A DNA stretch of 24,637 nucleotides from Burkholderiales bacterium. Its GTDB lineage: Bacteria; Pseudomonadota; Gammaproteobacteria; Burkholderiales; SG8-39. The stretch is taken from positions 1 to 24,637 of the forward strand of contig DATHHZ010000305.1 in the NCBI GenBank assembly GCA_035316965.1. Reading direction: 5' to 3'. Both the position numbers and the translations under genes were made by a program. The notes beneath the pieces were generated by a model. The model searched no databases and was not told the origin of the DNA. It saw nothing but the letters and a program-made list of their open reading frames with translations. This document shows positions 547 through 24,637 of the stretch, one piece after another (the stretch's first letter is position 1; every line of letters starts with the position of its first letter).

Positions 547-1512
547 CTAGTCGAGTTTTGCACCCGCGGCCTTGACGATCTTGGCCCAGTGCGCGAGGTC
601 GGTCTTGATCTGCGCTGCGAATTCTTCCGGAGTGTTTCCTACCGGCTCGATTCCGTCCCTAGCCAGGCGTTCGAGGAAATCCGGCCGCTTGATGACGGCG
701 ACGGAGTCGTCGTGGATCTTTTTCACGATCTCGCGCGGCGTGCCCGCCGGCGCCATGAAGCCGTACCAGGCGGTGATGTCGAAGCCGGGCAGGGTCTCGG
801 CGATCGCGGGAACATCGGGCAGCGCCTTTGCACGCCCGGGGCCCGTGACGGCTAGCGCCTTTAACTTCCCGCTCCGGGTGAGCTGGATCGACGCGGTGAT
901 GCCTCCGAAGATGAGCGGCACCTGGTTGGCGAGCACGTCGGCGATGCCCTGGCCGAATCCCTTGTAGGGCACGTGGATCATGTCCATGCTGCCCGCCATG
1001 GTGCGGATGTATTCCATCGCGAGATGCTGCTGGCCGCCCGCGCCCGAGGACGCGTAGCTCACCTTGCCCGGCTGCGTCTGCACCAGCGCGATCAGCTCCT
1101 TCACGTTGTCCGGCGGAAACGCAGGGTTCGCCATCAGCACGAAGGGGCCCGCGGCGTCGTTGACGACGGGCGCCAGATCGCGCACCGGGTCGTAGGGCAG
1201 CTTCGAATTCAGGTGCGGCGCGATGGTGATGGTCGCGTCCGCCGCGAAGAGCAGGGTGTAGCCGTCGGGAGCCGCCTTCGCGACGTAATCGGTGCCGATC
1301 GTTCCGCACGCGCCGGTGCGGTTCTCGACCACGACCGACTGGTTCCAGACCTTTTGCAGCTCGGCCGACATGACGCGCCCGTAGATGTCGGGCGTGCCGC
1401 CGGGCGGGAAGGTGACGATCACGCGGACGGGCTTGGACGGAAAGCCTTGAGCCCACGCGGCGGACGAAAGAACGGCCAGGACGGCGAGCGCAACTATTGT
1501 TCTCAAGGACAT
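547..1512 (-). CDS. Bug/TctC-family substrate-binding protein (321 aa)
   Basis: C-terminal part of ORF 547..2394. Real start MSLRTIVALAVLAVLSSAAWAQGFPSKPVRVIVTFPPGG (ATG at 1512). Motifs VVVENRTGA.GTIG, PDGYTLL, HVPYKG, GIEPVGNTPEEF. Confidence 0.93.
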   Translation of the reverse strand: MSLRTIVALAVLAVLSSAAWAQGFPSKPVRVIVTFPPGGTPDIYGRVMSAELQKVWNQSVVVENRTGACGTIGTDYVAKAAPDGYTLLFAADATITIAPHLNSKLPYDPVRDLAPVVNDAAGPFVLMANPAFPPDNVKELIALVQTQPGKVSYASSGAGGQQHLAMEYIRTMAGSMDMIHVPYKGFGQGIADVLANQVPLIFGGITASIQLTRSGKLKALAVTGPGRAKALPDVPAIAETLPGFDITAWYGFMAPAGTPREIVKKIHDDSVAVIKRPDFLERLARDGIEPVGNTPEEFAAQIKTDLAHWAKIVKAAGAKLD

Positions 1513-1557
1513 CTCACAACTTCCACCAAAGCACACGGCGAAGGATAGCACCGGAGC

Positions 1558-1710
1558 ACCACCCCGTCGCCTGCGGCGACACCCCTCCTTGAGAAAGGAG
1601 GGGACTGATACCACCCCGCCCCGCTGCGCGGGCACCCCTCCTTGAGAAAGGAGGGGACTAAATACCACCCCGCCCGCTGCGCGGGCACCCCTCCTTGAGA
1701 AAGGAGGGGA
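1558..1710 (+). repeat. Three tandem family A double-hairpin units (1558-1604, 1610-1657, 1664-1710)
   Basis: Each unit reads accacccc-[stem1]-acccctcctt-gaga-aaggagggg-a. Stem1 is gtcgcc/ggcgac in the first and gcccgc/gcgggc in the other two. Spacers are 5-6 nt (ctgat, ctaaat). Confidence 0.93.
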
Positions 1711-1711
1711 T

Positions 1712-1739
1712 AGAAAAGAAAAAGGCGGCCCCTTTTTTT
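1712..1739 (-). terminator. Possible intrinsic terminator of the atp operon
   Basis: On the minus strand, about 65 nt after the atpC stop: aaaaaaagggg-ccg-cctttttcttttct, a short stem (with G.U pairs) followed by a U-rich tract. The stem is weak. Confidence 0.4.
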
Positions 1740-1802
1740 GTTGTTGGGGCCACCTCCGAGCAACAAACTCCGCGCGTTTTTCTTGTTTTGCTGCTTCTCG
1801 CT

Positions 1803-2225
1803 TTATTTTCTCTGGCGGAGCTTGCGGATGGCTGCGAGCTGCGCGGCGAGGGACGCCAGCTCGGCTTCGACGGTCGCGACTTCCTGCTTGTCCTTCGCGC
1901 GGCGCCGCGCTTCCTCGGCGGCCTTCAGGGCCTCGGTCGCCTTGGCCTCGTCGAGGTCGCGGCCGCGGATCGCGGTGTCGGCGAGCACGGTCACCACCTC
2001 GGGTTGCACTTCGAGGATGCCGCCCGCGACGAAGACGAGCTCCTCCTCGCCGCCGCCCGCCGGCTTGATCCTCACCGATCCGGGCTTGATGCGCGTGATG
2101 AGCGGCGCGTGGCGCGGGTAGATGCCGAGCTCGCCCGCTTCGCCGGGGAGCACGACGAACTCGGCCTCGCCCGAGTAGATGCTCGCTTCGGCGCTGACGA
2201 CGTCGACGTGAATCGTGTTTGGCAT
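1803..2225 (-). CDS. atpC: F1Fo ATP synthase epsilon subunit
   Basis: [42 protein letters not shown]...[26 protein letters not shown]; last gene of the atp operon. Confidence 0.97.
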
Positions 2226-2245
2226 GTCCGTGTTCTACGTTCCTG

Positions 2246-2291
2246 ACCACCCCGCCCGCTTCCCAGGCGCCCCTCCTTGAAAAGGAGGGGA
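2246..2291 (+). repeat. Single family A unit with degenerate first hairpin, in the atpD-atpC gap
   Basis: accacccc-gcccgc-ttc-ccaggc-gcccctcctt-gaa-aaggagggg-a. Stem1 is mispaired and stem2 is intact. Confidence 0.85.
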
Positions 2292-2302
2292 TGAGGCAGT
2301 CG

Positions 2303-3748
<1,446 letters not shown>

Positions 3749-3783
3749 CTATTGGTGCCTTCCAAATTCAGTTTCCCCTCCCA

Positions 3784-3969
3784 TCCCCTCCTCATCTTGA
3801 GGAGGGGTGCCCGCGAAGCGGGCGGGGTGGTGGAGGGGTGCCTTCGCAGCAGGCGGGGTGGTTTCCCCTCCTCTTTTGAGGAGGGGTGCCTGCGCAGCAG
3901 GCGGGGTGGTCTTGTGCGCCGACCACCACCCCGCGCCTTCGGCGCACCCCTCCTCAAGAGAGGAGGGGA
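3784..3969. repeat. Family A cluster in the atpG-atpD gap: inverted units 3784-3831, 3832-3862 (half unit), 3864-3910; direct unit 3925-3969
   Basis: tcccctcctc-loop-gaggaggggt-[stem1]-ggggtggt repeated, then accacccc-gcgcc-ttc-ggcgc-acccctcctc-aaga-gaggagggg-a. Confidence 0.92.
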
Positions 3970-3993
3970 AGAAAGCGGCACACATCGCTCGAT

Positions 3994-4037
3994 TCATACC
4001 GCCGCCGCTCCTGCGCGCCTCATACCGCCGCCGCTCC
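3994..4037 (-). repeat. 18-bp direct duplication of the last six codons of atpG including the stop
   Basis: tcataccgccgccgctcc occurs at 3994-4011 and 4020-4037, separated by tgcgcgcc. Confidence 0.9.
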
Positions 4038-4883
4038 GCCGACGATCTCGGAGATTTCCTTCGTGATCCCCGCCTGCCGGTTCTTGTTGTAGACGAGCGT
4101 CAGCTCGTCGATCAGGGTCTCGGCGTTGTCGGAGGCGGACTTCATCGCGACCATGCGCGCGCTCTGCTCGGAGGACATGTTCTCGGCGACCGCCTGGAAG
4201 ATGATCGCCTCGATGTAGCGCGTGAGCACCTGCTCTAGCACGACCTTCGCCTCGGGCTCGTAGAGGTAATCCCAATGGCTTGCCGGCGAGCCGAGCCGCT
4301 CGCCCGAGAGCGGCAGCAGCTGCTCCATGACCGGCTCCTGCTTCATGGTGTTGATGAAGCGCGTGTAGAAAAGCAGGAGGCGGTCGAAGCGGTCCTGCGT
4401 GTAGCCGTCGAGCATCACCTTCACCGCGCCGATGAGCTTGTCCATCTGCGGCCGGTCGCCGAGCTGAACGACGTGCGATGCGACGTTCGCGCCCAGGCGC
4501 TGCATGAAGCCGAAGCCCTTGCCGCCGATCGCGCAGACCTCCATTTTCTCGCCCTGCGCTTCCCACTCCTTGTACTTTCCGAGCGCGAGGCGAAGGAGAT
4601 TGGTGTTCAGCGCGCCGCACAGGCCCTTGTCGGTGGTGACGATGATCATCCCGACGCCCTTCACCGTGTCGCGCTCGACGAGGAACGGGTGCCGGTACTC
4701 GGGATTGGCGTGGCTGATGTGCGCGGCGACGTTGCGGATCTTCTCGCCGTAGGGGCGCGAATGGCGCATGCGCTCCTGCGCCTTCCTCATCTTCGAGGCG
4801 GCGACCATCTCCATCGCCTTGGTGATCTTCCGGGTGTTCTGCACACTCCGGATTTTCATCCGTATTTCTTTTGTTCCCGGCAT
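4020..4883 (-). CDS. atpG: F1Fo ATP synthase gamma subunit
   Basis: [79 protein letters not shown]. Confidence 0.98.
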
Positions 4884-4896
4884 CCTGTCCTCTTGT

Positions 4897-4987
4897 CGTC
4901 ACCCCCGCGAAAGCAGGGGCCCAGTATCGTCAAAGTCGCTGGATTCCTCACCCGCTTTCGCGGGTGCTGAAGGCCGCGGGAATGACG
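4897..4987. repeat. CGTC/GACG-bounded palindromic REP-like element (family B) in the atpA-atpG gap
   Basis: cgtcacccccgcgaaagcaggggcccag ... ctggattcc ... gcgggaatgacg. Terminal inverted repeat cgtca/tgacg with internal hairpins; translates to the familiar spurious peptide VTPAKAGAQ...WIP...AGMT. Confidence 0.8.
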
Positions 4988-4990
4988 GTT

Positions 4991-6541
<1,551 letters not shown>

Positions 6542-6564
6542 CGTTGCTCCTGGTCGCTTTTCTG

Positions 6565-6669
6565 TCCCCTCCTCATTTGAGGAGGGGTGGCGCGAAGCGC
6601 CGGGGTGGTCTCGCCGCGTACCACCACCCCCCGCCTGCGGCGGACCCCTCCTCCTGAAAGGAGGAGGGG
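6565..6669. repeat. Head-to-head pair of family A units (6565-6609 inverted, 6623-6669 direct) in the atpH-atpA gap
   Basis: tcccctcctca-tt-tgaggaggggt-ggcgc-gaa-gcgcc-ggggtggt, a 13-nt spacer, then accacccc-ccgcc-tgc-ggcgg-acccctcctcct-gaa-aggaggagggg. Confidence 0.92.
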
Positions 6670-6701
6670 TCACAATGGATCTTCTGCAGCTGCTGCATTC
6701 G

Positions 6702-7238
6702 TCAGGCTTTCAGCGCCGCGGCCATCTCTTCGAGCTTGCCGCGCACCGAGCAGTCGATCACTTCATCGCCGGCCGTGATGCGCACGCCGCCGATCAGCTC
6801 CTTGTCCACGGCGACGCGCGGCTGGACCCGGCGCTTCAAGCGCCGCGAGATGTCCGCGACGAGCCCGTTGATCTGCGCGTTGTCCAGCGGAAAGGCGGTG
6901 CGGATCTCGGCCTCGACCACGCCTTCGAGCTCGTTTTTCAGCTCGATGAACTGCTGGTGGATCTGAGGCAAGAGCGCGAGACGGTCGTTGGCGATCAGCA
7001 CGCGCACGAAGTTCCGCGCGTCGATGGGAAAATCCTCCTTGCACAGCTCCATGAACAGGTCGTAGAGCTGCTTGGCTCCGAGATTGGGGTTCGAGATGCA
7101 CGCGCGCATGTCCGGATGCGCCGCGACCCGCGCCATGATCGCAAGCATGTTCAGCCAGTTCGCGAAAGCGCCCGCGCGCTCGGCGAGGCCGAAGACGGCC
7201 CCGGCGTAGGGTCTGGCGATGGTGGCGGCTTCAGCCAC
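6702..7238 (-). CDS. atpH: F1Fo ATP synthase delta subunit
   Basis: GTG start; [48 protein letters not shown]. Confidence 0.97.
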
Positions 7239-7243
7239 GGCTC

Positions 7244-8831
<1,588 letters not shown>

Positions 8832-8853
8832 TGCGGGAAGCTCTTTCTGAATT

Positions 8854-9210
8854 CTACTTTTCGCGAACCAGTATTGCCATGGTGAAAATCAGGACCGTGG
8901 CGATGAACGTGCCGATCAGCCCGATCGCGACGACGTCCCTGTACGTCGCCAGCACGAACCACAACAGGAGAACCATGAGTACCAGCTTGACGGCCTCGGC
9001 CCTCAAGGTGGTATACAGCGCCTCCCCTGCAGACTTCGATCTACCGCGTGCAGCCAATACCGCAAAAGCCAGGCCGGCGATGATTCCTATCGATCCGCCC
9101 AGTGCGGCGGAGATTGCGCCGTGTATTCCGGCGAGCCAGGCCGACAGCAGGCTTACGGCAGCGGTGCACAAAAACTGCAGCCCGATTATCGGGCGGAATA
9201 CGTGCCACAC
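8854..9210 (-). CDS. atpI: ATP synthase protein I (about 118 aa; alternative TTG start at 9228)
   Basis: Four hydrophobic segments with SAALGG and AE.VK.VL motifs; first gene of the operon. GTG at 9210 is preceded by GGAG at 6 nt spacing. Confidence 0.85.
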
Positions 9211-9237
9211 GCCCAGCTCCAGCTGCAAAACCGCAGA

Positions 9238-14180: not shown

Positions 14181-15335
14181 ATGAGCGCGAAAGTCGCCCC
14201 GCTCCGGATTTCTGAAACCCGGCCGAAGCTCGCGATCGAGCGAGTCGAAGTATTCGGCGTCGCCGTGCCGCTCGCAGGCGGCGGGTTCAAGAACGCCTAC
14301 GTGACCAAGACCGTGCAAAAAAGCGCCGTCGTGCGCGTGACCGCGGGCGGCGGCGCGGTCGGGCTGGGCAACATCGATCCCTCGCCGGGCTATTCGACCG
14401 AGACCATCGAGGAATCGCTTGCGGCATTGCGCGGCAAGCTCGCGCCGGGCGTGATCGGCCTGGATGCGGCGAACATCCATGTTCTCAACGCGCGGCTGGA
14501 CGCGGTGGCGCCCGGTTTTCTCGACGCCAAGGCGGCGATCGAAATGGCCTGCGTGGACCTCACCGCTCGCGCGCTCGGCGTGCCGGTGTACACCTATCTC
14601 GGCGGCGCAGTGAAGGAACGCCTGAGCTTCAACGCGTGGATCGGTATTTTGCCGCCCGAGGAAGCGGCCGCCGAGGCGCGCAAGTGGTTCGAGCGCGGCT
14701 TCCGCTCGGCGAAGATCAAGGTCGGCGGCGGCATCGAGGCCGACCGCGACCGCGTCAAAGCGGTGCGCGAGGCGGTCGGCGGCACGATGGCGCTGCGCAT
14801 CGACGCGAACGCAGGCTACGACGCGGACACGGCGATACGCCTTGCACGCTTGATGCAACCTTGCGATCTCCAGCTCTTCGAGCAGCCGGTCGCGGCCCGC
14901 GATCTCGCCGGCATGGCGCGCGTGCGCCGCGAGGCGGGCGGCGTGCCGATCATGGCGGACGAATCCGTCCTCGACCACGCGAGCCTGATCGCTGTGATCA
15001 AGGCGGACGCCGCCGACATCGTCAAACTGAAAGTCATGAAGCAGGGCGGGTTCCACCGCACGCTCGCGATGCTCGCGACCGCGGAAGCCGCGGGGTTGCG
15101 CTGCGTCGTCGGACACGGATTCGGGCTGGGCGTGAACACCATGGCGGAGATCATGCTCGCCGCCACCAGCGCGAACGTGATCGACGGCCTGGAATGCGTC
15201 GGGCCGCTCAAGACCGTGGACGACATCACCACCGAAAAACTCGACCTCGGCGCGGGCGTCCTCGCGCTTCCGCCCGGCCCGGGACTCGGCGTCGCGCTCG
15301 ACGAGGCGAAGCTCGCGCGCTATCGGTTCGCCTAG
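14181..15335 (+). CDS. Mandelate racemase / muconate-lactonizing enzyme family enolase (MLE subgroup, 384 aa)
   Basis: KIKVG (KxK), RIDAN, FEQP, MADES, KLKVMKQGG; start MSAKVAPLRI at 14181. Confidence 0.9.
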   Translation: MSAKVAPLRISETRPKLAIERVEVFGVAVPLAGGGFKNAYVTKTVQKSAVVRVTAGGGAVGLGNIDPSPGYSTETIEESLAALRGKLAPGVIGLDAANIHVLNARLDAVAPGFLDAKAAIEMACVDLTARALGVPVYTYLGGAVKERLSFNAWIGILPPEEAAAEARKWFERGFRSAKIKVGGGIEADRDRVKAVREAVGGTMALRIDANAGYDADTAIRLARLMQPCDLQLFEQPVAARDLAGMARVRREAGGVPIMADESVLDHASLIAVIKADAADIVKLKVMKQGGFHRTLAMLATAEAAGLRCVVGHGFGLGVNTMAEIMLAATSANVIDGLECVGPLKTVDDITTEKLDLGAGVLALPPGPGLGVALDEAKLARYRFA

Positions 15336-15355
15336 CGGCACAGGACGCAGCATCG

Positions 15356-16324
15356 ATGACACGTCGTTTTCCTCGCATCGTAATCGCGCTCGCATGCCTG
15401 CTCGCCGCCGCGCAAGCGCTCGCCCAAGCCTATCCGGCGCGGCCGATCCGAATGCTTGTCCCCTTCGCCGCTGGCGGCTCGGTGGACATCGTGGCGCGCC
15501 TCCTCGGCGTGAAGCTCTCCGAACAACTGGGCCAGCCGTTCGTGGTCGAGAACAAGGGCGGCGCGGGCGGCACCATCGCCGCCGCTACACTCGCCAAGTC
15601 GCCCGGCGACGGCTACACGCTGATGACGATGCACCAGGGACTCGCTTTCAACGCGAGTCTCTACCCCGACCTTCCCTACGATACGCTGCGCGATCTGACT
15701 CCGATCGCCCACGTAGGTGCGACACCCAATGCGCTGGTGGTCACCCACTTGCTGCCGGTGAAAACGATGCAGGAGTTTCTCGCCTACGCGCGCGCCAACC
15801 CAGGCGGCATCGCCTACGGCTCGGGCGGAATCGGCAGCGCGGGACATCTCTCGGTCGAGCTGCTGCAGTCGCTCACAGGCACCAAGTTCACGCACGTGCC
15901 GTACAAGGGCTCCGGGCCGGCGATCACCGACCTGATCAGCGGGCAAATCCAGGCCATGCTGCTCACCATGCCCTCGGTGATGCCCTACGTGAAAGGCGGC
16001 AAGGTGCGAGCCATCGCCACTTCCGGCGCGCGCCGCTCGCCGGCGCTGCCGGACCTGCCCACCATCGCCGAAGCGGGCGTGCCCGGTTACGAATACACGC
16101 CCTGGTATGGAATGTTCGGCCCGGGCACGCTGCCGAAGCCGCTGGTCGCGCGGCTCAACTCGGCCGTCAACACGTCACTCGCCGACGCCGGGGTACGGGA
16201 GAAGCTCGCGCAGCAAGGTCTGGAAGTGCACACGACGACGAGCGACCAGTTCACCGAGATCGTGCGTGCCGACGTGGCACGGTGGGGAAAAATCATCCGC
16301 GAGATCGGCGTGCGCGGAGAATGA
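15356..16324 (+). CDS. Bug/TctC-family substrate-binding protein (322 aa)
   Basis: MTRRFPRIVIALACLLAAAQALAQAYPARPIRMLVPFAAGGSVD, GQPFVVENKGGAGG, HVPYKGSGPA, GLE. Confidence 0.93.
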   Translation: MTRRFPRIVIALACLLAAAQALAQAYPARPIRMLVPFAAGGSVDIVARLLGVKLSEQLGQPFVVENKGGAGGTIAAATLAKSPGDGYTLMTMHQGLAFNASLYPDLPYDTLRDLTPIAHVGATPNALVVTHLLPVKTMQEFLAYARANPGGIAYGSGGIGSAGHLSVELLQSLTGTKFTHVPYKGSGPAITDLISGQIQAMLLTMPSVMPYVKGGKVRAIATSGARRSPALPDLPTIAEAGVPGYEYTPWYGMFGPGTLPKPLVARLNSAVNTSLADAGVREKLAQQGLEVHTTTSDQFTEIVRADVARWGKIIREIGVRGE

Positions 16325-17119: not shown

Positions 17120-18447
17120 CGGTTGAGCGCGACCTGCCGGGACGTTTCCGGCGTTGTGTAGGCCGTACGCAGCGCCTTCGACCCGAGCTTCATATGATGC
17201 GCGCGGCCGAGCTTCTCCGCGGTGAAATCCACCTCGAACACCTGCTTCAACTCCTTGCCGTTCCAGGTGAACCCGCGCAGGAACTGCTCGTTATCCGCGC
17301 CGCCCTTGTCCCAGTTCGCGAGCAGCGACGACGTGATGTACACCCGCTTGCCGTCCCAGCTCTGCGAAATCATGTTGACCTGCTTGCCGGTTTGCTTTTC
17401 GTAGGTTTGCTTGGGCGCTTCGGGATTGGAAAGGTCGAAGTAGCGCGTCTTCCCGTCCATGAAGGTGTTGACCCACAGGCCCTTGCCGTCGCGGGTGATG
17501 CTGATATCGACGGGTAATGGGATCTTGGCCGGGTCGCCGATCGTCGCCACGTCCTTCGCCTGCCACTCGCCCTTGGCGTCCTGCTTCACCAGCCAGATTT
17601 TCGATGTGAGCGCGGTGGCCGCGACCGCCCAGTTGTCCCCGGGCTTCAAGGACCAGCGAATCTCGAGCGGTGCGCCAGGCACGCTGAAGACTTTTTGCGG
17701 CTTCATGGCCTTGAGGTCCCACAGCACCATGGTATTGCCGAAACGCTTCATTGCCTCCGGGTCCTTCACGACTTCGCCCAAGGACCGCATATAGTTGTTG
17801 TAGCCGGTGAAGCTCGAGGTGAGCAGCACGTTTTTCCTGGGATTCACCGCGAGATCGTAGCCGTAGCCGTCCCCGCCGTTAGCGACCGGCATTGCGTAGC
17901 TCGTGATGAAGTCGCCTTTGTTGTTGTACAGCGCCATCCCCGTAACGCCGCCCTTGTCCCTGGTGTTGGAGAGCGCCTGCACCAGCATCCGCCCGGGCAG
18001 GGCATAGTAGGTGTGCGGACCGACATAGCCGGTCTTCTCCGCGAGGTTCGCGATGCTATTGACGAGCCGGGGTCTGCCGGGATCGGTCGCGATGTCAAAA
18101 ACGTGGATCCTGCTGTTTTCCAGGCCGCCCGCCCAAAGGAAGCGCCGGTCGTCGGTGAAGCCCATGTGATGAGCCTCGCCGCGTGACCCGACCGAGACCT
18201 GTTGAATCACCTTGCCGTAGTTCTTCGATTTGGGATTGACATCCACCGTCACCATTTTGTCCGAGCCGTCGCCCAGGCCCTCCACGCCCAGCGCCCAGAC
18301 ATAAACGTAGTCCTCCTGTCCCTTGATCAATTTTGTGACGTAAGGCGAGTTGCAGGTTTCGTCGCCGTAGGCCTGCGGGACTTCAAGCGGCACGGCACCT
18401 ACGAAGATGAACGCCGCGTAAGACATTGCTCGACTGAACCGGATCAT
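17116..18447 (-). CDS. mtoX: SBP56/SELENBP1-family methanethiol oxidase-like protein, periplasmic (Sec signal, mature start DETCNSP)
   Basis: EAHHMGFTDDRR, GPHT, YGYD, GNT..LWDL, PLEIR, LPVDISI, SQS.DGKR.Y.TSSL.ANWD, LGRAHHM. Recognised as closely resembling bacterial MtoX, and paired with SCO as in known mtoX clusters. The activity is not certain (see findings). Confidence 0.8.
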   Translation of the reverse strand: MIRFSRAMSYAAFIFVGAVPLEVPQAYGDETCNSPYVTKLIKGQEDYVYVWALGVEGLGDGSDKMVTVDVNPKSKNYGKVIQQVSVGSRGEAHHMGFTDDRRFLWAGGLENSRIHVFDIATDPGRPRLVNSIANLAEKTGYVGPHTYYALPGRMLVQALSNTRDKGGVTGMALYNNKGDFITSYAMPVANGGDGYGYDLAVNPRKNVLLTSSFTGYNNYMRSLGEVVKDPEAMKRFGNTMVLWDLKAMKPQKVFSVPGAPLEIRWSLKPGDNWAVAATALTSKIWLVKQDAKGEWQAKDVATIGDPAKIPLPVDISITRDGKGLWVNTFMDGKTRYFDLSNPEAPKQTYEKQTGKQVNMISQSWDGKRVYITSSLLANWDKGGADNEQFLRGFTWNGKELKQVFEVDFTAEKLGRAHHMKLGSKALRTAYTTPETSRQVALNR

Positions 18448-18501: not shown

Positions 18502-19461
18502 TCAATCCAGCTTCGCACCGGAGAGCTTCACCAGTCTTGCGTACTTATCGTACTCCGCGCGCATCAGCGCGTCGAACTGCTCGGGCGTGCTCGTTCCGAC
18601 CCCGACGCCGAATCCGGCTATCTTCGCGTGGACCTCGGGCGAAGCCACAGCCGCCAGGATGCCGGCGTTCAGCCTGGCGACGAGCTCGCGCGGCGTTCCC
18701 GCCGGCACGAGCGCGCCCAGCATGGAGGCCATGTCGAAGCCCGGAATGCCGAGCTCGGCGATCGTCGGGATCTCCGGCAGCGCGGGTGTGCGCTTGCCGT
18801 CGGCGCTGGCGAGAATGCGCACCTTTCCCGCCCTGACGAACTGCGCCATCGCGGTATAGCTGGAGAACGCGACCTGCACGTCGCCCGCGATCAGGGCCGG
18901 CCCGGCCTGTCCCATTCCCTTGTAGGGCACGTGCACCATCTCGATTCCGGCGAGCGACTTGAACAGCTCGGTCGTGATGTGGTGGATCGAGCCGTTGCCC
19001 GCCGAAGCGTAGGAGAGCTTCCCGGGATTCCGCTTGGCGTAGGCGACGAACTCGGCGTAGGTGGTCGCCGGGACCGACGGATGCACCGTGAGGAAGGTCG
19101 GCAGCGTCGAGATCGTGGTGACGCCGGCGAAATCCTCGAGCGGCCGGTAGGGCACTTTCGCGTACAGGTGCGGGTTGATCGCCCAGATGGCGCTGTCGCA
19201 GACGTAGGCGGTATAGCCGTCGGGCGCGGATTTGGAGACCATTTCCGCCGCGATGTTCCCGTTCGCGCCGATGCGGTTCTCGATCACCACGGATCCCCAG
19301 GATTCGCTCATCTTCTGCGCGATGAGGCGCGCGAACACGTCGGGCGAGCCCCCCGGCGAAGTGCCGACGACGATCTTGACCGTCTTCGACGGATAGGCTT
19401 GGGCGGCGGCGGGGACCGGCGCAAGAACGCCGACCGCGAGGGCGACTAGGAGAGTGCGCAT
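18502..19461 (-). CDS. Bug/TctC-family substrate-binding protein (alternative start 19470)
   Basis: MRTLLVALAVGVLAPVPAAAQAYPSKTVKIVVGTSPGGSPD, VVIENRIGANG, PDGY, HVPYKG. Confidence 0.92.
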   Translation of the reverse strand: MRTLLVALAVGVLAPVPAAAQAYPSKTVKIVVGTSPGGSPDVFARLIAQKMSESWGSVVIENRIGANGNIAAEMVSKSAPDGYTAYVCDSAIWAINPHLYAKVPYRPLEDFAGVTTISTLPTFLTVHPSVPATTYAEFVAYAKRNPGKLSYASAGNGSIHHITTELFKSLAGIEMVHVPYKGMGQAGPALIAGDVQVAFSSYTAMAQFVRAGKVRILASADGKRTPALPEIPTIAELGIPGFDMASMLGALVPAGTPRELVARLNAGILAAVASPEVHAKIAGFGVGVGTSTPEQFDALMRAEYDKYARLVKLSGAKLD

Positions 19462-19471
19462 GGCTTCCATG

Positions 19472-20494
19472 TCAGGCCGGGGCGAGACGCGCGGCACGCT
19501 TCAACATCGGCATCACCTCGCTTGCGAAGAGACCGATCGAGCGCAGCGTCTCTTCCTGCGTGAGGTTGCCGAAAGCAAACTGGCCGACGAAGTAGTTCGC
19601 GCCCGCTTCCTCGAGTTGCGCCCGTACGTACCCGGCGACGCCTTGAGGGTCGCCGGCAAACGCGCGCCCGTCCTCGGCGATCGCTTCGAATTCAGGCGGC
19701 CGCGAATGCCGGTGGCTGACTCCCAACAGCGAAGAAAGAAACGTGAAGCTCTCGTACCAGCGCTTGTAGGCGCGGCGCGCCGCGGCGCGCGCATCGCCCG
19801 CGTTCTTTCCCACGACGATGAACCGCCCGAGCCCGATCCTGGGCAAAGGGACATCGCCGCGCGTCTCTCTCCAGACGGCGCGAAACCGCTCGAAGCAGGG
19901 CTTGAGCTCGGCGACCGTGTCGAGGCCGACCACGTTCATGCCGCGCCGCGCGACGCGCTCGGCGGCCTCCGGCGAATGCACGCCGTACCACAGCGGCGGA
20001 TGCGGTTTCTGCAGCGGCGGAATGGCGAGCGGCAGGCGCCGCTTTCCGCTCTCCGCAGTGACCGTGACCGCGCCTTCGCTCAAGCCTTCGAGGATGAAAC
20101 CGACCATTTCCTGGTGCACCTTCTCCGTCTGCGCCGGATCGACGTCGAAGAAGCGCACCTCCGCGCCGAGCGCGCCCCGGCCGAACGCGAGCTCCAGCCG
20201 CCCGCCGCTCATCTGGTCGAGCATGCCGATCTCTTCGAGCAGCCTCAAGGGATGATAGAGCGGCGCGACGGTCACCATGGGCCCGAAGCGCAGGCGCTTC
20301 GTGCGCTGCGCCACCGCCGCGAGGAACACCGAGGGCGAAGGCGCCATCCCTAAGGGCGTGAGATGGTGCTCGGCGACGTGGTACGAGTAAAAACCCGAGC
20401 GCTCGTAGGCCTCGATGATCTCGAGGCGCTCGCGATAGAACTGCTCGTGCGGACGGTCGCCGAGGTCGAGGTGATCGAAGACGCCGAATTCCAT
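19472..20494 (-). CDS. LLM class (luciferase-like) flavin-dependent oxidoreductase (340 aa)
   Basis: Start MEFGVFDHLD at 20494. AEHH, PSP.VFLAAVAQRT.RLRFG, HPLRL.EEI.MLDQMS.GRLE...GRG, PLQKPHPPLW. The ORF-track extension to 20611 is repeat-derived. Confidence 0.9.
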   Translation of the reverse strand: MEFGVFDHLDLGDRPHEQFYRERLEIIEAYERSGFYSYHVAEHHLTPLGMAPSPSVFLAAVAQRTKRLRFGPMVTVAPLYHPLRLLEEIGMLDQMSGGRLELAFGRGALGAEVRFFDVDPAQTEKVHQEMVGFILEGLSEGAVTVTAESGKRRLPLAIPPLQKPHPPLWYGVHSPEAAERVARRGMNVVGLDTVAELKPCFERFRAVWRETRGDVPLPRIGLGRFIVVGKNAGDARAAARRAYKRWYESFTFLSSLLGVSHRHSRPPEFEAIAEDGRAFAGDPQGVAGYVRAQLEEAGANYFVGQFAFGNLTQEETLRSIGLFASEVMPMLKRAARLAPA

Positions 20495-20511
20495 GGCGAT
20501 CCTTGTCTTTT

Positions 20512-20619
20512 TCCCCTCCTCTTCGAGGAGGGGTGCCGCCGGAGGCGGCGGGGTGGTAATGCGGCAAACATCGAACCACCCCGGCGCTTCGCGCCACCCC
20601 TCCTTGTCCAAGGAGGGGA
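20512..20619. repeat. Head-to-head pair of family A units (20512-20557 inverted, 20575-20619 direct)
   Basis: tcccctcctc-ttc-gaggaggggt-gccgcc-gga-ggcggc-ggggtggt, a 17-nt spacer, then accacccc-ggcgc-ttc-gcgcc-acccctcctt-gtcc-aaggagggg-a. Confidence 0.92.
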
Positions 20620-21286: not shown

Positions 21287-22147
21287 ATGAAAGCACCGCG
21301 CTTTGCCTACGCGCGACCGGCAAGCGTCGCAGAGGCGCTTGCGCTTCTTGCCGAGCACAAGGACGACGCACGGGTGCTGGCGGGCGGCCAGAGCCTCGTC
21401 CCGATGCTGAATTTCCGGCTCGCGGCGCCGAAAGTTCTCGTCGACATCAACCGCATCGCGGCGCTCGCGGGGATCAAAGTCACCCGGAATCACATACGCA
21501 TCGGCGCGCTCACGCGGCACGCGGAGCTCGAGCGCTCCGCCGACATCGCGCGGCACCTGCCGCTCGTCGCGGCAGCGATGCCGCACGTCGCCCACCCGGC
21601 GATCCGCAACCGCGGCACCTTCGGCGGCAGCTGCGCGCTCGGCGACCCCGCCGCGGAGCTGCCGGCCTGTGCGCTCGCGCTCGGCGCGACTTTCATCGCC
21701 GCGGGAAAGAAGGGTGAGCGGCGCATCCCGGCCCAGGATTTCTTCAAGGGCCTCTACGCCACCGCGCTCAAAGCGGGCGAGCTCCTCGTCGCCGCGGAAT
21801 TCCCGCTCCCGAAACCCGGCTACGCCTCGGCGTTCGGCGAGCTCGCGCGCCGCCATGGGGATTACGCCATGGTCGGGGTCGCCGCGCACGGATCGACGCT
21901 GGGGAAGAAATTCTCCGACATGCGCGTCGTGTTCTTCGGCGTCGCCGACCGGCCCCAGCGCGCGGCGCAGTTCGAGCGCGCCCTCGACGGCCAGGCCGCG
22001 GCGGCGAAGGCGATTGACGTGGCTCTGCCGAAGCTCGACGCCGATCTCTCGCCGCGAGCCGACTTCCACGGCTCGGCCGCGACCAAGCTGCATCTCGCAA
22101 AAGTGCTCGCCGGCCGAGTTCTCAGGCAGATGGAAGGTGTTTCGTGA
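21287..22147 (+). CDS. Xanthine dehydrogenase/CODH family FAD-binding medium subunit (CoxM/CutM-like)
   Basis: YARP.SV.EA..LL, LAGGQSL.P.LNFRL, IGALT.H, AHPAIRNRGT.GGS...GDPAAELP. Confidence 0.92.
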   Translation: MKAPRFAYARPASVAEALALLAEHKDDARVLAGGQSLVPMLNFRLAAPKVLVDINRIAALAGIKVTRNHIRIGALTRHAELERSADIARHLPLVAAAMPHVAHPAIRNRGTFGGSCALGDPAAELPACALALGATFIAAGKKGERRIPAQDFFKGLYATALKAGELLVAAEFPLPKPGYASAFGELARRHGDYAMVGVAAHGSTLGKKFSDMRVVFFGVADRPQRAAQFERALDGQAAAAKAIDVALPKLDADLSPRADFHGSAATKLHLAKVLAGRVLRQMEGVS

Positions 22148-22638
22148 AAGCTGCCACCGAAACGCTGGAGGTCTCGCTGACCGTCAACGGCGAGCGGGTG
22201 AAGCGCAGCGTGCCCGCGCGCCTCAACCTCGCCGACTTCCTCCGGAACGAGCTGGAGCTCACCGGCACCCACGTCGGCTGCGAGCACGGCGTGTGCGGCG
22301 CGTGCACGGTGCGCGTCGACGGCGAAATCGTGCGCGGCTGCCTCATGTTCGCGGCGCAGGCCGATGGCTGCAAGGTGGACACGATCGAGGGCTTGTCCGA
22401 TTCGCGCGAAATCGAGGAGTTGCAAAGCGCCTTCGTCCTCACTAACGCCCTGCAATGCGGTTTCTGCACGCCGGGCGTCCTCATGGCGGCGCAGGCGTTG
22501 CTGCGCGACGAGTCGAACCCTTCGCGCGAGCGCATCCGCGAGTATCTGTCGGGCAATTACTGCCGCTGCACGGGCTACCAGGCGATCGTCGATGCGATCG
22601 AGGCGGTGGCGAAGGCGCGGGCGGCGAGATCCAGATGA
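22144..22638 (+). CDS. 2x[2Fe-2S] small subunit (CoxS/CutS-like)
   Basis: GCEHGVCGAC...C, QCGFCTPG, GNYCRCTGY; GTGA overlap with the medium subunit gene. Confidence 0.94.
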   Translation: MKAATETLEVSLTVNGERVKRSVPARLNLADFLRNELELTGTHVGCEHGVCGACTVRVDGEIVRGCLMFAAQADGCKVDTIEGLSDSREIEELQSAFVLTNALQCGFCTPGVLMAAQALLRDESNPSRERIREYLSGNYCRCTGYQAIVDAIEAVAKARAARSR

Positions 22639-22639
22639 T

Positions 22640-22743
22640 TGTCATCCTGAGCCCTTCGCTTCGCTCGAGGGTGAACTCCGCGAAGGATCTGCTTTTCGAG
22701 AACTGCAAAAGCAGATTCTTCGGCCTGCGGCCTCAGAATGACA
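22640..22743. repeat. TGTCAT-bounded 104-bp palindromic element (family C, REP/MITE-like) between the small and large subunit genes
   Basis: Terminal inverted repeat tgtcatcctgag / ctcagaatgaca (11 of 12 match); perfect inner inverted repeat atctgctttt (22687-22696) / aaaagcagat (22707-22716); translates to the spurious VILS...AKDL...RFFG...QND peptide. Confidence 0.82.
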
Positions 22744-22762
22744 CTGTTTGGAGCATTGGCGC

Positions 22763-24637
22763 ATGAGCGAATTCGACGAAACGGCGAAGACGCTCGATTT
22801 CGATGCGCCGAACAGCTACGTCGGGCGCTCGGTGACGCGCCCGAATGCGCGGCGTCTCACGCAAGGCCGCGGCCAGTACGTCGACGACATCGTGCTGCCG
22901 CGCATGCTGCACGTCGCTTACGTGCGCTCGCCGCACGCGCACGCGAGGATCTTGAGAATCGAGACCAAGAAGGCCGCGGCGATGCCCGGCGTGGTGCGCA
23001 TCGTCACCGGCGCCGAGATCGCGCTGGTCTGCAAACCGTACGTCGGAGTGCTCACTGACTTGCAGGGAATGCGTTCGCCGCCGCAGTACCCGCTCGCGAT
23101 GGAGGTCGCGCGCTGGCAGGGTGAACCGGTCGTCGCGGTGGTCGCGCAGTCGCGCGCCGAAGCCGAGGACGCGGCGGAAGGCAGCGAGGTCGGGTACGAG
23201 GAGCTGCCCGCCGCGCTCGACGCGGAGCGCGCGCTCGACCCGTCCGAGCCGAAGATCCACAAGGAGTTCGACAGCAACCTGTGCTTCCAGAGGATCGTGG
23301 ATACGGGCGGCGTGGACGCCGCGATGAAGGGCGCGCACCTCGTCGTCGAGGACACGATCCGTTTCGGCCGCCACACCGGCGTCACCATGGAGCCTCGCGC
23401 CATCCTCGCCGACTACAATCCGGCGGAAGAGAGCATGACCGTGTATCACTGCGGCCAGTCGCCGCACATGATGCAGGGGATCATCGCGAGCCGCCTCTCG
23501 CTGGATGAGCACCGCGTGCGCATCGTCGCGCGCGACGTCGGCGGCTCCTTCGGCATCAAGATCCACACTTACGGCGACGAGATCGCCGCCTGTGCGCTCT
23601 CGCTCATGCTGGGGCGCCCGGTGAAGTTCGCCGCCGACCGCTACGAGTCCTTTCTCTCGGACATCCACGCGCGCGACCACCGCGTTAAGGCGAAGCTCGC
23701 CGTCGACCGCGACGGCAACATCACGGCCCTCGAGATCGACGATCTCACCGGCATCGGGCCGTACTCGATGTTCCCGCGCTCCTCCGGGGTCGAGTGCAAC
23801 CAGATCCTCAATCTCACCGGCGGGCCGTACAAGCACAAGGAGTACCGCGCGAAAGGCACGGTGGTGTTCCAGAACAAGAACATGATGTGCCAGTACCGCG
23901 CCGTGGGGCATCCGATCGCGGTCGCGGTGGCGGAGCACATGGTCGACCAGGCGGCGGCCAAGCTCAGGCTAGATCCCGCCGAGATGAGGAAGAGGAACCT
24001 CATCGCCGATGACGCCTATCCCTGCAAGTCGCCTTCGGGAATGCGCTTCGAGGCGCTGTCGCACCACCAGTGCCTGGACAAGCTGCTCGCGCTGATGAAG
24101 TACGGCGAGCTGCGCAAGGAACAAGCCGAGCTTCGAAAGAAAGGCGTTTACCACGGCATCGGGCTCTCTTCCTTCATCGAAGTGACCAACCCGAGCCCGA
24201 TGTTCTACGGCGTGGGCGGCGCGAGGATCGCCGCCCAGGACGGCTGCACCATCAAGCTGGACGCGAGCGGTGCCATCGTCGCCGCCACCGGCGTCACCGA
24301 GCAGGGCCAGGGAACCGAGACGATCATGGCGCAGATCGCCGCGACCGCGCTCGGCGTCGAGATGAGCTGCGTGAAGGTGCTCACCGGCGACACCGACAAG
24401 GTGCCTTACGGCGGCGGCACCTGGGCCTCGCGCGCGGCGGGAATCGGCGGGGAGGCCGTGCTCCAGGCAGGGCTCGCGCTGAAGGCGAACATACTCCAGG
24501 CCGGCGCGGTGATCCTGAAAACGAGCGCCGCCGAGCTCGATATCGTCGACGGCAAGGTGGTGAAAAAAGGCAGCGAGCAGGGCATCACCCTCACCGAGCT
24601 GGCGCGCATCTGCTACTACCGCGGCAACGAATTGCCC
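22763..24637 (+). CDS. Xanthine dehydrogenase family molybdopterin-binding large subunit (CoxL-like; partial, runs off window end)
   Basis: Manual translation from ATG 22763 (GGAG upstream): MSEFDETAKTLDFDAPNSYVGRSVTRPNARRLTQGRGQYVDD...RSPHAHARI; VGGSFGIK, QYRAVGHP, EQGQGTET, GGGTWASR. Not in the ORF track because it has no stop inside the window. Confidence 0.92.
   Translation, partial: MSEFDETAKTLDFDAPNSYVGRSVTRPNARRLTQGRGQYVDDIVLPRMLHVAYVRSPHAHARILRIETKKAAAMPGVVRIVTGAEIALVCKPYVGVLTDLQGMRSPPQYPLAMEVARWQGEPVVAVVAQSRAEAEDAAEGSEVGYEELPAALDAERALDPSEPKIHKEFDSNLCFQRIVDTGGVDAAMKGAHLVVEDTIRFGRHTGVTMEPRAILADYNPAEESMTVYHCGQSPHMMQGIIASRLSLDEHRVRIVARDVGGSFGIKIHTYGDEIAACALSLMLGRPVKFAADRYESFLSDIHARDHRVKAKLAVDRDGNITALEIDDLTGIGPYSMFPRSSGVECNQILNLTGGPYKHKEYRAKGTVVFQNKNMMCQYRAVGHPIAVAVAEHMVDQAAAKLRLDPAEMRKRNLIADDAYPCKSPSGMRFEALSHHQCLDKLLALMKYGELRKEQAELRKKGVYHGIGLSSFIEVTNPSPMFYGVGGARIAAQDGCTIKLDASGAIVAATGVTEQGQGTETIMAQIAATALGVEMSCVKVLTGDTDKVPYGGGTWASRAAGIGGEAVLQAGLALKANILQAGAVILKTSAAELDIVDGKVVKKGSEQGITLTELARICYYRGNELP

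Follow-up and report, generated by a model that had tools for sequence, protein, structure and literature searches.

Methanethiol oxidase carries out a key step in volatile organic sulfur cycling, and its cofactor has been in question since a proposal of 2017, drawn from gene context and an apo-structure, that it contains tryptophan tryptophylquinone (TTQ), the established cofactor of methylamine dehydrogenase. The founding member of the family is MtoX of Hyphomicrobium sp. VS, a Cu-dependent periplasmic enzyme with an SCO1/SenC gene downstream, and the TTQ proposal of Eyice et al. was based on a mauG homologue in the operon and on two tryptophans near histidines in the structure 2ECE, with no peptide-level proof given in the portion of the report available to us, whose main text lists His89, 90, 140 and 412 (Eyice et al. 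2017, PMC5739008). In MtoX of Ruegeria pomeroyi DSS-3, the available text of PMC10936201 proposes TTQ formation from Trp223 and Trp386 and Cu ligation by His88, His89, His141 and His424, and reports a Cys-S-S-CH3 adduct on Cys28; the enzyme produced in E. coli without MauG consumed methanethiol and made sulfane sulfur but no H2O2, and needed Cys28 to do so. The order mtoX-SCO1-mauG is treated as the bona fide arrangement, for example in the accessible part of bioRxiv 10.64898/2025.12.05.692423. Here we describe an mtoX-family gene on a contig of 24,637 nucleotides (DATHHZ010000305.1, the whole of which is called the window) from a metagenome-assembled genome (MAG) of a Burkholderiales bacterium (GCA_035316965.1), in which Tyr216 occupies the first of the two tryptophan positions and no mauG was found within the 24.6-kb window. 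From the sequence comparisons set out below, we consider that the gene probably encodes a MauG-independent, copper-only MtoX, in which a whole site that depends on MauG has been lost, Tyr216 being a tolerated substitute there and no cofactor precursor.

By its profile matches the window gene is a clear member of the known family, its product scoring 152.3 bits against the Pfam model SBP56 (PF05694, cut-off 34) and 739.3 bits against the NCBIfam equivalog NF052453 MthilOxMtoX (cut-off 650). An earlier note on this DNA had reported a Tyr and a Trp codon, TAC and TGG, 163 residues apart, together with intact putative copper-ligand motifs; the codons of Tyr216 and Trp379 were read directly as described, and H93/H94, GPH145, YGYD, PLEIR and AHHM are all present. 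Pairwise alignment placed Tyr216 opposite R. pomeroyi Trp223, Trp379 opposite Trp386 and Cys32 opposite Cys28, with His93, His94, His145 and His417 aligning with His88, His89, His141 and His424, so that the assignment of Tyr216 to the first proposed TTQ tryptophan stands; the motif SSFTGWNNYM, which the note gives for Hyphomicrobium MtoX, does occur in Trp-type relatives. The note numbers the proposed Hyphomicrobium TTQ tryptophans Trp211 and Trp374, and His89, 90, 140 and 412 agree with this spacing. TTQ needs two tryptophans and the window protein offers only the second, which makes a canonical Trp-Trp cofactor impossible in it, as had been argued. Within the MtoX clade the equivalence of Tyr216 to the proposed TTQ tryptophan is exact as judged by alignment; sequence does not decide whether its column also corresponds to the SELENBP1-type Trp in the SBP56 family as a whole, and in a HMMER alignment to 2ECE, Tyr216 stands opposite Pro, with the nearest Trp three columns upstream.

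The 120 best matches of a large protein search (78–96% identical) have Tyr at column 216 in 97 cases, His in 19 and Ala, Lys, Gln or Phe in one each, with Trp in none. The entropy of this column is 0.89 bits, at the 79th percentile (median column 0.12), and Cys32, His93, His145, Arg221, Trp379, His417 and His418 have zero entropy, His94 being kept in 120 of 121 rows; altogether 157 of 397 columns are invariant across these homologues, which span several phyla. A wider set, clustered at 50% identity, listed 150 representatives, many of which were fragments; column 216 is covered by 82 rows, the query among them, and reads Trp in 28, Tyr and Arg in 8 each, Lys in 6 and other residues in fewer, although some of these rows are misaligned or frameshifted fragments. 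A sequencing error at Tyr216 was considered and is excluded, because the change from TGG to TAC takes two base changes and because Tyr is kept in relatives, among them the majority of the 120 homologues and the loci L003 and L007, which are 94% and 88% identical to the window gene. On these comparisons Tyr at 216 is neither an error nor rare, but ordinary within its subfamily.

Genomic context was compared in a locus set of one genome per species, comprising the best 80 of at least 579 relatives (the 80 being 66–94% identical); flanking sequence of up to 8 kb was included, and together with the window the set gave 81 rows. Residue 216 in the 80 loci is Trp in 30, Tyr in 24, Arg in 10, His in 5, Ile in 4, Lys in 2, Ala in 2 and Ser, Phe or Gln in one each. 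A hidden Markov model of the MtoX-type MauG, built from nine mtoX-linked genes, was searched against all open reading frames (ORFs) of all loci, and a row was taken as evaluable when at least 2.2 kb of downstream sequence was available or MauG was seen (67 rows; the remaining 14 comprise 9 non-Trp and 5 Trp rows). Among the evaluable rows, mauG was present at 19 of 25 Trp loci (absent from 6) and in 0 of 42 non-Trp rows, so that Tyr-type genes do lack it, a point that the note had proposed to check. Downstream di-haem ORFs on the same strand, with two CxxCH motifs, were likewise found only in Trp-type loci, and all 19 di-haem ORFs checked in Pfam were CCP_MauG: 17 on the same strand and mtoX-linked, and two on the opposite strand (L077 and L081), the latter cytochrome c peroxidases being 27–28% identical to the true MtoX-linked MauGs. 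Of the 80 loci, 76 have sequence past the end of mtoX, and in every one of these the gene directly downstream is a SCO1 homologue; in the window the two genes are translationally coupled through the overlap of stop and start codons. When 608 neighbouring ORFs were clustered, the only conserved groups were mtoX and SCO1, joined in Trp-type loci by MauG, and no third conserved maturation gene emerged in the mauG-less loci. The sole CCP_MauG gene found in the MAG of the window, on contig C370, was rejected as a MauG acting in trans, being no orthologue at 33% identity to the MtoX-linked MauGs and 133 bits (true orthologues, 324–404 bits).

Two further observations were made on the Trp-type loci. 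Six of them (L061, L064, L073, L077, L081 and L038) keep Trp216 without an MtoX-type mauG within 2.4–8 kb downstream; all six have lost Met221, and five also lack His165. Secondly, SCO1 and MauG are fused as one ORF of ~590–710 aa in L050, L074, L080, L067, L072, L075 and L078, with both domains passing the Pfam thresholds only in L050, L074 and L080; such a fusion is also reported for Methylophaga thiooxydans in the accessible part of PMC6548844.

The coupling between mauG and residue 216 was then sought column by column, with a scan of entropy differences between 19 mauG-linked and 48 mauG-less rows over 402 aligned columns. Column 216 ranks first of the 402, with 0 bits in the mauG-linked and 2.69 bits in the mauG-less rows; Trp is invariant in 19/19 mauG-linked genes, and ten different residues are found among the 48 mauG-less rows. 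On pruned trees, site 216 shows 0 changes over a length of 2.54 in the mauG-linked rows and 16 changes over a length of 5.98 in the mauG-less rows, the latter amounting to ~2.7 changes per unit length, or ~2.7 times the average site rate. Were the rates equal, the mauG-linked tree should show ~6.8 changes, and by our own arithmetic the probability of observing none is ~0.001; this site is no post-hoc pick, since it had been named beforehand by the original finding. Two other positions, chosen post hoc, follow the same division: position 165 is His in 19/19 mauG-linked rows and in 4% of mauG-less rows, and position 221 is Met in 19/19 mauG-linked rows and Arg in 41/48 mauG-less rows. The full His165-Trp216-Met221 triad is present in 19/19 mauG-linked and 0/48 mauG-less rows; at these positions the six Trp genes without mauG have Lys-Trp-Arg in five cases and His-Trp-Lys in one, and the window has Lys165-Tyr216-Arg221. 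In no row, with mauG or without it, does Trp379 vary.

The variability of position 216 bears directly on the suggestion in the earlier note that Tyr216 might be a crosslink or quinone precursor, which Cu and O2 would convert, by self-processing, to a crosslink with Trp379 or to a tyrosyl quinone, in place of TTQ as organic redox cofactor. Copper enzymes are known to self-process tyrosine, topaquinone (TPQ) being classed as autocatalytic in the accessible part of PMC11951088, and the Tyr majority in the clade of the window (97/120 homologues) and the invariance of Trp379 would both suit such a product. Against it, homologues as close as 78–96% identity have His (19), Ala, Lys, Gln or Phe in place of Tyr while every other functional residue is fixed, sister mauG-less clades have Arg, Lys, Ile, Ala, Ser or Gln, the site evolves ~2.7 times faster than the average site, and the mauG-less genes have no conserved neighbour that could supply a different maturation step. 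A cofactor residue would be expected to be invariant, as are Cys32, the His ligands and Trp379, and with ten residue types at this site in the mauG-less lineages the precursor role is not supported; Tyr216 is probably not a new cofactor, and its self-processing appears very unlikely. To our knowledge, precursor residues are invariant in self-processed tyrosine cofactor families, and the strict Tyr conservation that characterises TPQ and lysine tyrosylquinone (LTQ) is not seen at position 216, with Tyr in 97 of the 120 nearest homologues.

With column 216 removed, a tree of the 81 proteins (IQ-TREE quick, LG+G4) requires at least 7 changes between Trp and non-Trp, 4 of them forced by well-supported branches; residue type needs 18 changes on it, and the mauG state at least 3. 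On this tree, non-Trp MtoX proteins 76–85% identical to that of the window, from MAGs labelled Binatia and Methylomirabilota/Rokubacteria (L004, L008–L010, L012, L014, L015, L020, L023, L024 and L028), interleave with proteobacterial rows, a pattern which suggests that the mtoX-SCO1 pair has spread horizontally among soil phyla.

The same residues were read in genomes held out from the locus set. A random sample of 400 other Pseudomonadota genomes contained five MtoX genes, a small held-out set, each of them canonical in combining His165 and Trp216 with Met or Gln at 221 and in having an MtoX-type MauG no further than ~3 kb away. The R. pomeroyi triad is His-Trp-Met, with MauG, and a plasmid gene of Skermanella mucosa reads Gly-Lys-Met at 165/216/221 and is accompanied by SCO only. 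Four cultured species of Massilia carry Ala, His, His and Arg at 216, and no MtoX-type MauG was found anywhere in their genomes, the best match reaching 130 bits and 44% identity over half its length (true orthologues, 324–404 bits and 49–56%).

Taken together, a mauG-less MtoX subfamily is widespread, mainly in soil metagenomes, and of the earlier proposal that the window gene represents a new cofactor variant or subfamily, the distinct subfamily (mauG-less and non-Trp) holds and the new cofactor is not supported. In the copper-only reading favoured here, the window MtoX would be exported to the periplasm, where SCO1 would load Cu onto the His site; Cys32 would bind the substrate, and Cys32 together with the Cu site would oxidise a thiol, most likely methanethiol, with O2. 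The products would be formaldehyde and either sulfide or sulfane sulfur, formed without a Trp-derived cofactor. Trp216 would be under selection only where MauG acts on it, so that after the loss of mauG the site would drift, with Tyr and His as the fillers favoured in the clade of the window.

Several points weigh against this interpretation. The association of Trp with mauG rests partly on shared ancestry, because relatives share states and changes of mauG state are few, and with a minimum of only three such changes an independent-pairs test has too few contrasts for power. In the clade of the window Tyr is still the majority residue at position 216, with 19 of 22 rows on the tree and His as the main alternative, and Tyr216 may have a local role, for example in hydrogen bonding near the metal. 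Since the MAG is only 75% complete, this organism may have a mauG elsewhere. That positions 165, 216, 221 and 379 and the His ligands lie close together in one site would be a supposition from sequence, and it is from homology that we infer the activity and substrate of the non-Trp subfamily, the window enzyme included. Finally, a MauG-less enzyme may be no true oxidase, because without MauG the R. pomeroyi protein produced sulfane sulfur but not H2O2.

This last point leads to an alternative in which the chemistry itself has changed, with the mauG-less subfamily being no H2O2-forming oxidase but a Cys32/Cu enzyme that makes sulfane sulfur from methanethiol or some other small thiol, or acts on another substrate, and with the loss of the triad marking the shift. 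The Cys28 dependence of the MauG-free R. pomeroyi reaction (available text of PMC10936201) has its counterpart in the invariance of Cys32 among the homologues of the window protein, and Arg221 is newly fixed in the mauG-less subfamily (120/120 nearest homologues, 41/48 mauG-less rows), which suggests adaptation rather than mere decay. The NCBIfam equivalog score above cut-off, the retention of the His ligands and of SCO1, and the lack of any neighbouring gene conserved across loci that would point to another substrate speak against it, as does the observation that recombinant RdMTO with Cu yields H2S, H2O2 and HCHO, which disputes the sulfane-sulfur reading (PMC13603461, as far as accessible). 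We regard a change of chemistry as unlikely. Decay of the gene, leaving a degenerating or non-catalytic relic of the mtoX operon after the loss of mauG, might be supposed from the loss of mauG and of three otherwise invariant residues, but is hardly credible for an intact reading frame with 157/397 columns invariant across 120 homologues, the His ligands and Cys32 also invariant, and the coupled SCO1 gene kept in all loci with sequence.

A variant of the copper-only reading concerns what MauG does in the canonical enzymes. In MbnP, a Trp is turned into kynurenine by MbnH, and the Cu site consists of kynurenine, His, Met and water (PMC11951088, section 2.1.5). His, Trp and Met are also the set that accompanies mauG in the Trp-type MtoX proteins, and the MtoX-linked di-haem enzymes score 225–227 bits against the NCBIfam MbnH model and 184–196 bits against that of the TTQ MauG, all below cut-offs and with a small gap. 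Instead of building a Trp216-Trp379 TTQ, the canonical MtoX partner may modify Trp216 alone (for example to kynurenine), with His165 and Met221 forming a second, MbnP-like Cu site; this reading of a single modified Trp is favoured by the perfect tracking of the triad with mauG and by the invariance of Trp379 regardless. The window enzyme would then be a natural single-site MtoX, with a His4-Cu centre and Cys32, in which the second site is erased and filled by Lys165, Tyr216 and Arg221. We offer this as a conjecture, and a rather improbable one at present.

The features of the locus are collected in Table 1.

Table 1. The mtoX-SCO1 locus of the window: genes and codons of the residues discussed (window coordinates)
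Feature	Position	Strand	Basis or remark
mtoX-family gene (SBP56 / methanethiol oxidase), 443 aa	17116..18447	-	ORF, Pfam and NCBIfam; hydrophobic N-terminal leader precedes DETC (read by eye)
Tyr216 codon TAC	17800..17802	-	Within LLTSSFTGYNNYM; position of R. pomeroyi MtoX Trp223
Trp379 codon TGG	17311..17313	-	Within SSLLANWD; equals R. pomeroyi Trp386; invariant with or without mauG
Lys165 codon	17953..17955	-	His in all mauG-linked relatives
Arg221 codon	17785..17787	-	Met in 19/19 mauG-linked relatives; Arg in 41/48 mauG-less rows, invariant in 120 nearest homologues
His93-His94 codons, proposed Cu ligands	18166..18171	-	Alignment; roles from the accessible text of PMC5739008 and PMC10936201
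His145 codon (GPH), proposed Cu ligand	18013..18015	-	Alignment
His417-His418 codons (AHHM)	17194..17199	-	His417 aligns with proposed Cu ligand His424 of R. pomeroyi MtoX
Cys32 codon, sole cysteine of the protein	18352..18354	-	Equals R. pomeroyi MtoX Cys28
SCO1/SenC-family copper chaperone gene, 233 aa	16418..17119	-	Pfam SCO1-SenC, 42 bits; start overlaps mtoX stop (4-nt ATGA)
TctC/Bug-family periplasmic receptor gene	18502..19497	-	Pfam TctC; upstream of mtoX only in closest relatives L003 and L007
Luciferase-like monooxygenase gene	19472..20611	-	Pfam Bac_luciferase; NCBIfam matches all below cut-offs; same place only in L003

The SCO1 protein of the window contains CTDPEGC, a Cys-x5-Cys arrangement; in SCO proteins a CxxxC motif is usual. 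The TctC and luciferase-like genes upstream are not conserved parts of the mtoX module, and as a clue to the substrate they were set aside, since beyond the nearest relatives L003 and L007 they are not conserved. In all, three TctC/Bug-family receptor genes lie in the 24.6 kb, at 547–2394 (-), 15332–16324 (+) and 18502–19497 (-); the first, a 615-aa ORF, is over-extended, sharing sequence with the ATP synthase epsilon gene, and matches TctC in its C-terminal half only. Elsewhere in the window, positions 1803–9228 (-) hold an F1Fo ATP synthase operon called complete from Pfam matches to I, A, B, OSCP/delta, alpha, gamma, beta and epsilon, the c subunit not having been looked for, and positions 21287–24637 (+) hold a CoxM/CoxS/CoxL-type molybdenum hydroxylase set with FAD-binding, 2Fe-2S and molybdopterin subunits, the last of which runs off the window end.

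Two findings have no counterpart in the searchable literature: one is that a large subfamily of MtoX lacks mauG and varies at the first proposed TTQ tryptophan, the other that His165, Trp216 and Met221 are coupled to mauG at the level of single residues. The accessible portions of that literature (including PMC9003020, PMC10277263, PMC6548844 and bioRxiv 10.64898/2025.12.05.692423) contained nothing on variation at the Trp site or on mauG-less MtoX, although Table S7 of PMC5739008 may list mauG-less operons. Through this coupling the MauG partner is tied for the first time to particular residues of the enzyme, with Trp216, His165 and Met221 constrained only with mauG and Trp379 regardless of it. 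The mauG-less subfamily comes mostly from soil metagenomes (Burkholderiales, Methylomirabilota/Rokubacteria and Binatia) and extends to cultured Massilia and Skermanella, and environmental mtoX counts may therefore pool two biochemically different enzyme types. With the natural variants now at hand, it can be tested directly what MauG makes and whether oxidase turnover requires it.

Among the closest described systems is the validated MtoX of R. pomeroyi (RpMTO, SPOA0269, WP_011242048.1, encoded by a gene annotated mtoX on megaplasmid NC_006569.1), which belongs to the same MtoX clade and is 57% identical to the window protein over residues 29–430. The two share the four Cu-ligand histidines, the single conserved cysteine (Cys28 of R. 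pomeroyi) and the second tryptophan (Trp386), all identical in the window, as well as an SCO-family gene directly downstream and, in the alignment, a hydrophobic N-terminal leader preceding DETC. They differ in that R. pomeroyi has Trp223, His and Met where the window has Tyr216, Lys165 and Arg221, and in the operon, since the R. pomeroyi genes are followed by those for a MauG-like cytochrome c peroxidase and a formaldehyde-detoxifying dehydrogenase, and the window has neither. The latter R. pomeroyi gene encodes an S-(hydroxymethyl)glutathione dehydrogenase (formaldehyde handling; L083, 7271–8383 (+)), and none lies behind the window pair. The Hyphomicrobium sp. VS operon, which was compared with the window indirectly through R. 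pomeroyi, also differs in having mauG. Human SELENBP1 and the Sulfolobus tokodaii SBP56 protein (PDB 2ECE, the only solved structure found for the family) belong to the same Pfam family and are distant matches (2ECE, E = 3e-24); unlike the window gene, they are not encoded with SCO1 or MauG. According to the accessible parts of the respective reports, human SELENBP1 produced in E. coli with Cu alone has methanethiol oxidase activity (PMC10362175), and recombinant human SELENBP1, C. elegans SEMO-1 and RdMTO from E. coli need only Cu (PMC10362175; PMC13603461). The likeness to MbnP/MbnH applies to the Trp-type relatives, whose His, Trp and Met are the same set as in the MbnP Cu site, and not to the window protein: the MbnP fold is unrelated to that of MtoX, and where an MbnP-like site calls for a Trp precursor, His, Met and a di-haem partner, the window has Lys165, Tyr216, Arg221 and no partner. 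The mauG-less organisation of the window also occurs in cultured bacteria, namely in the SBP56 gene of Skermanella mucosa plasmid pSM-2 (WP_202683009.1) and in Massilia aquatica, M. eurypsychrophila, M. solisilvae and M. psychrophila, whose proteins are 57–72% identical to that of the window and have Lys, Ala, His, His and Arg, respectively, at position 216, and which carry mtoX and SCO only, as the window does.

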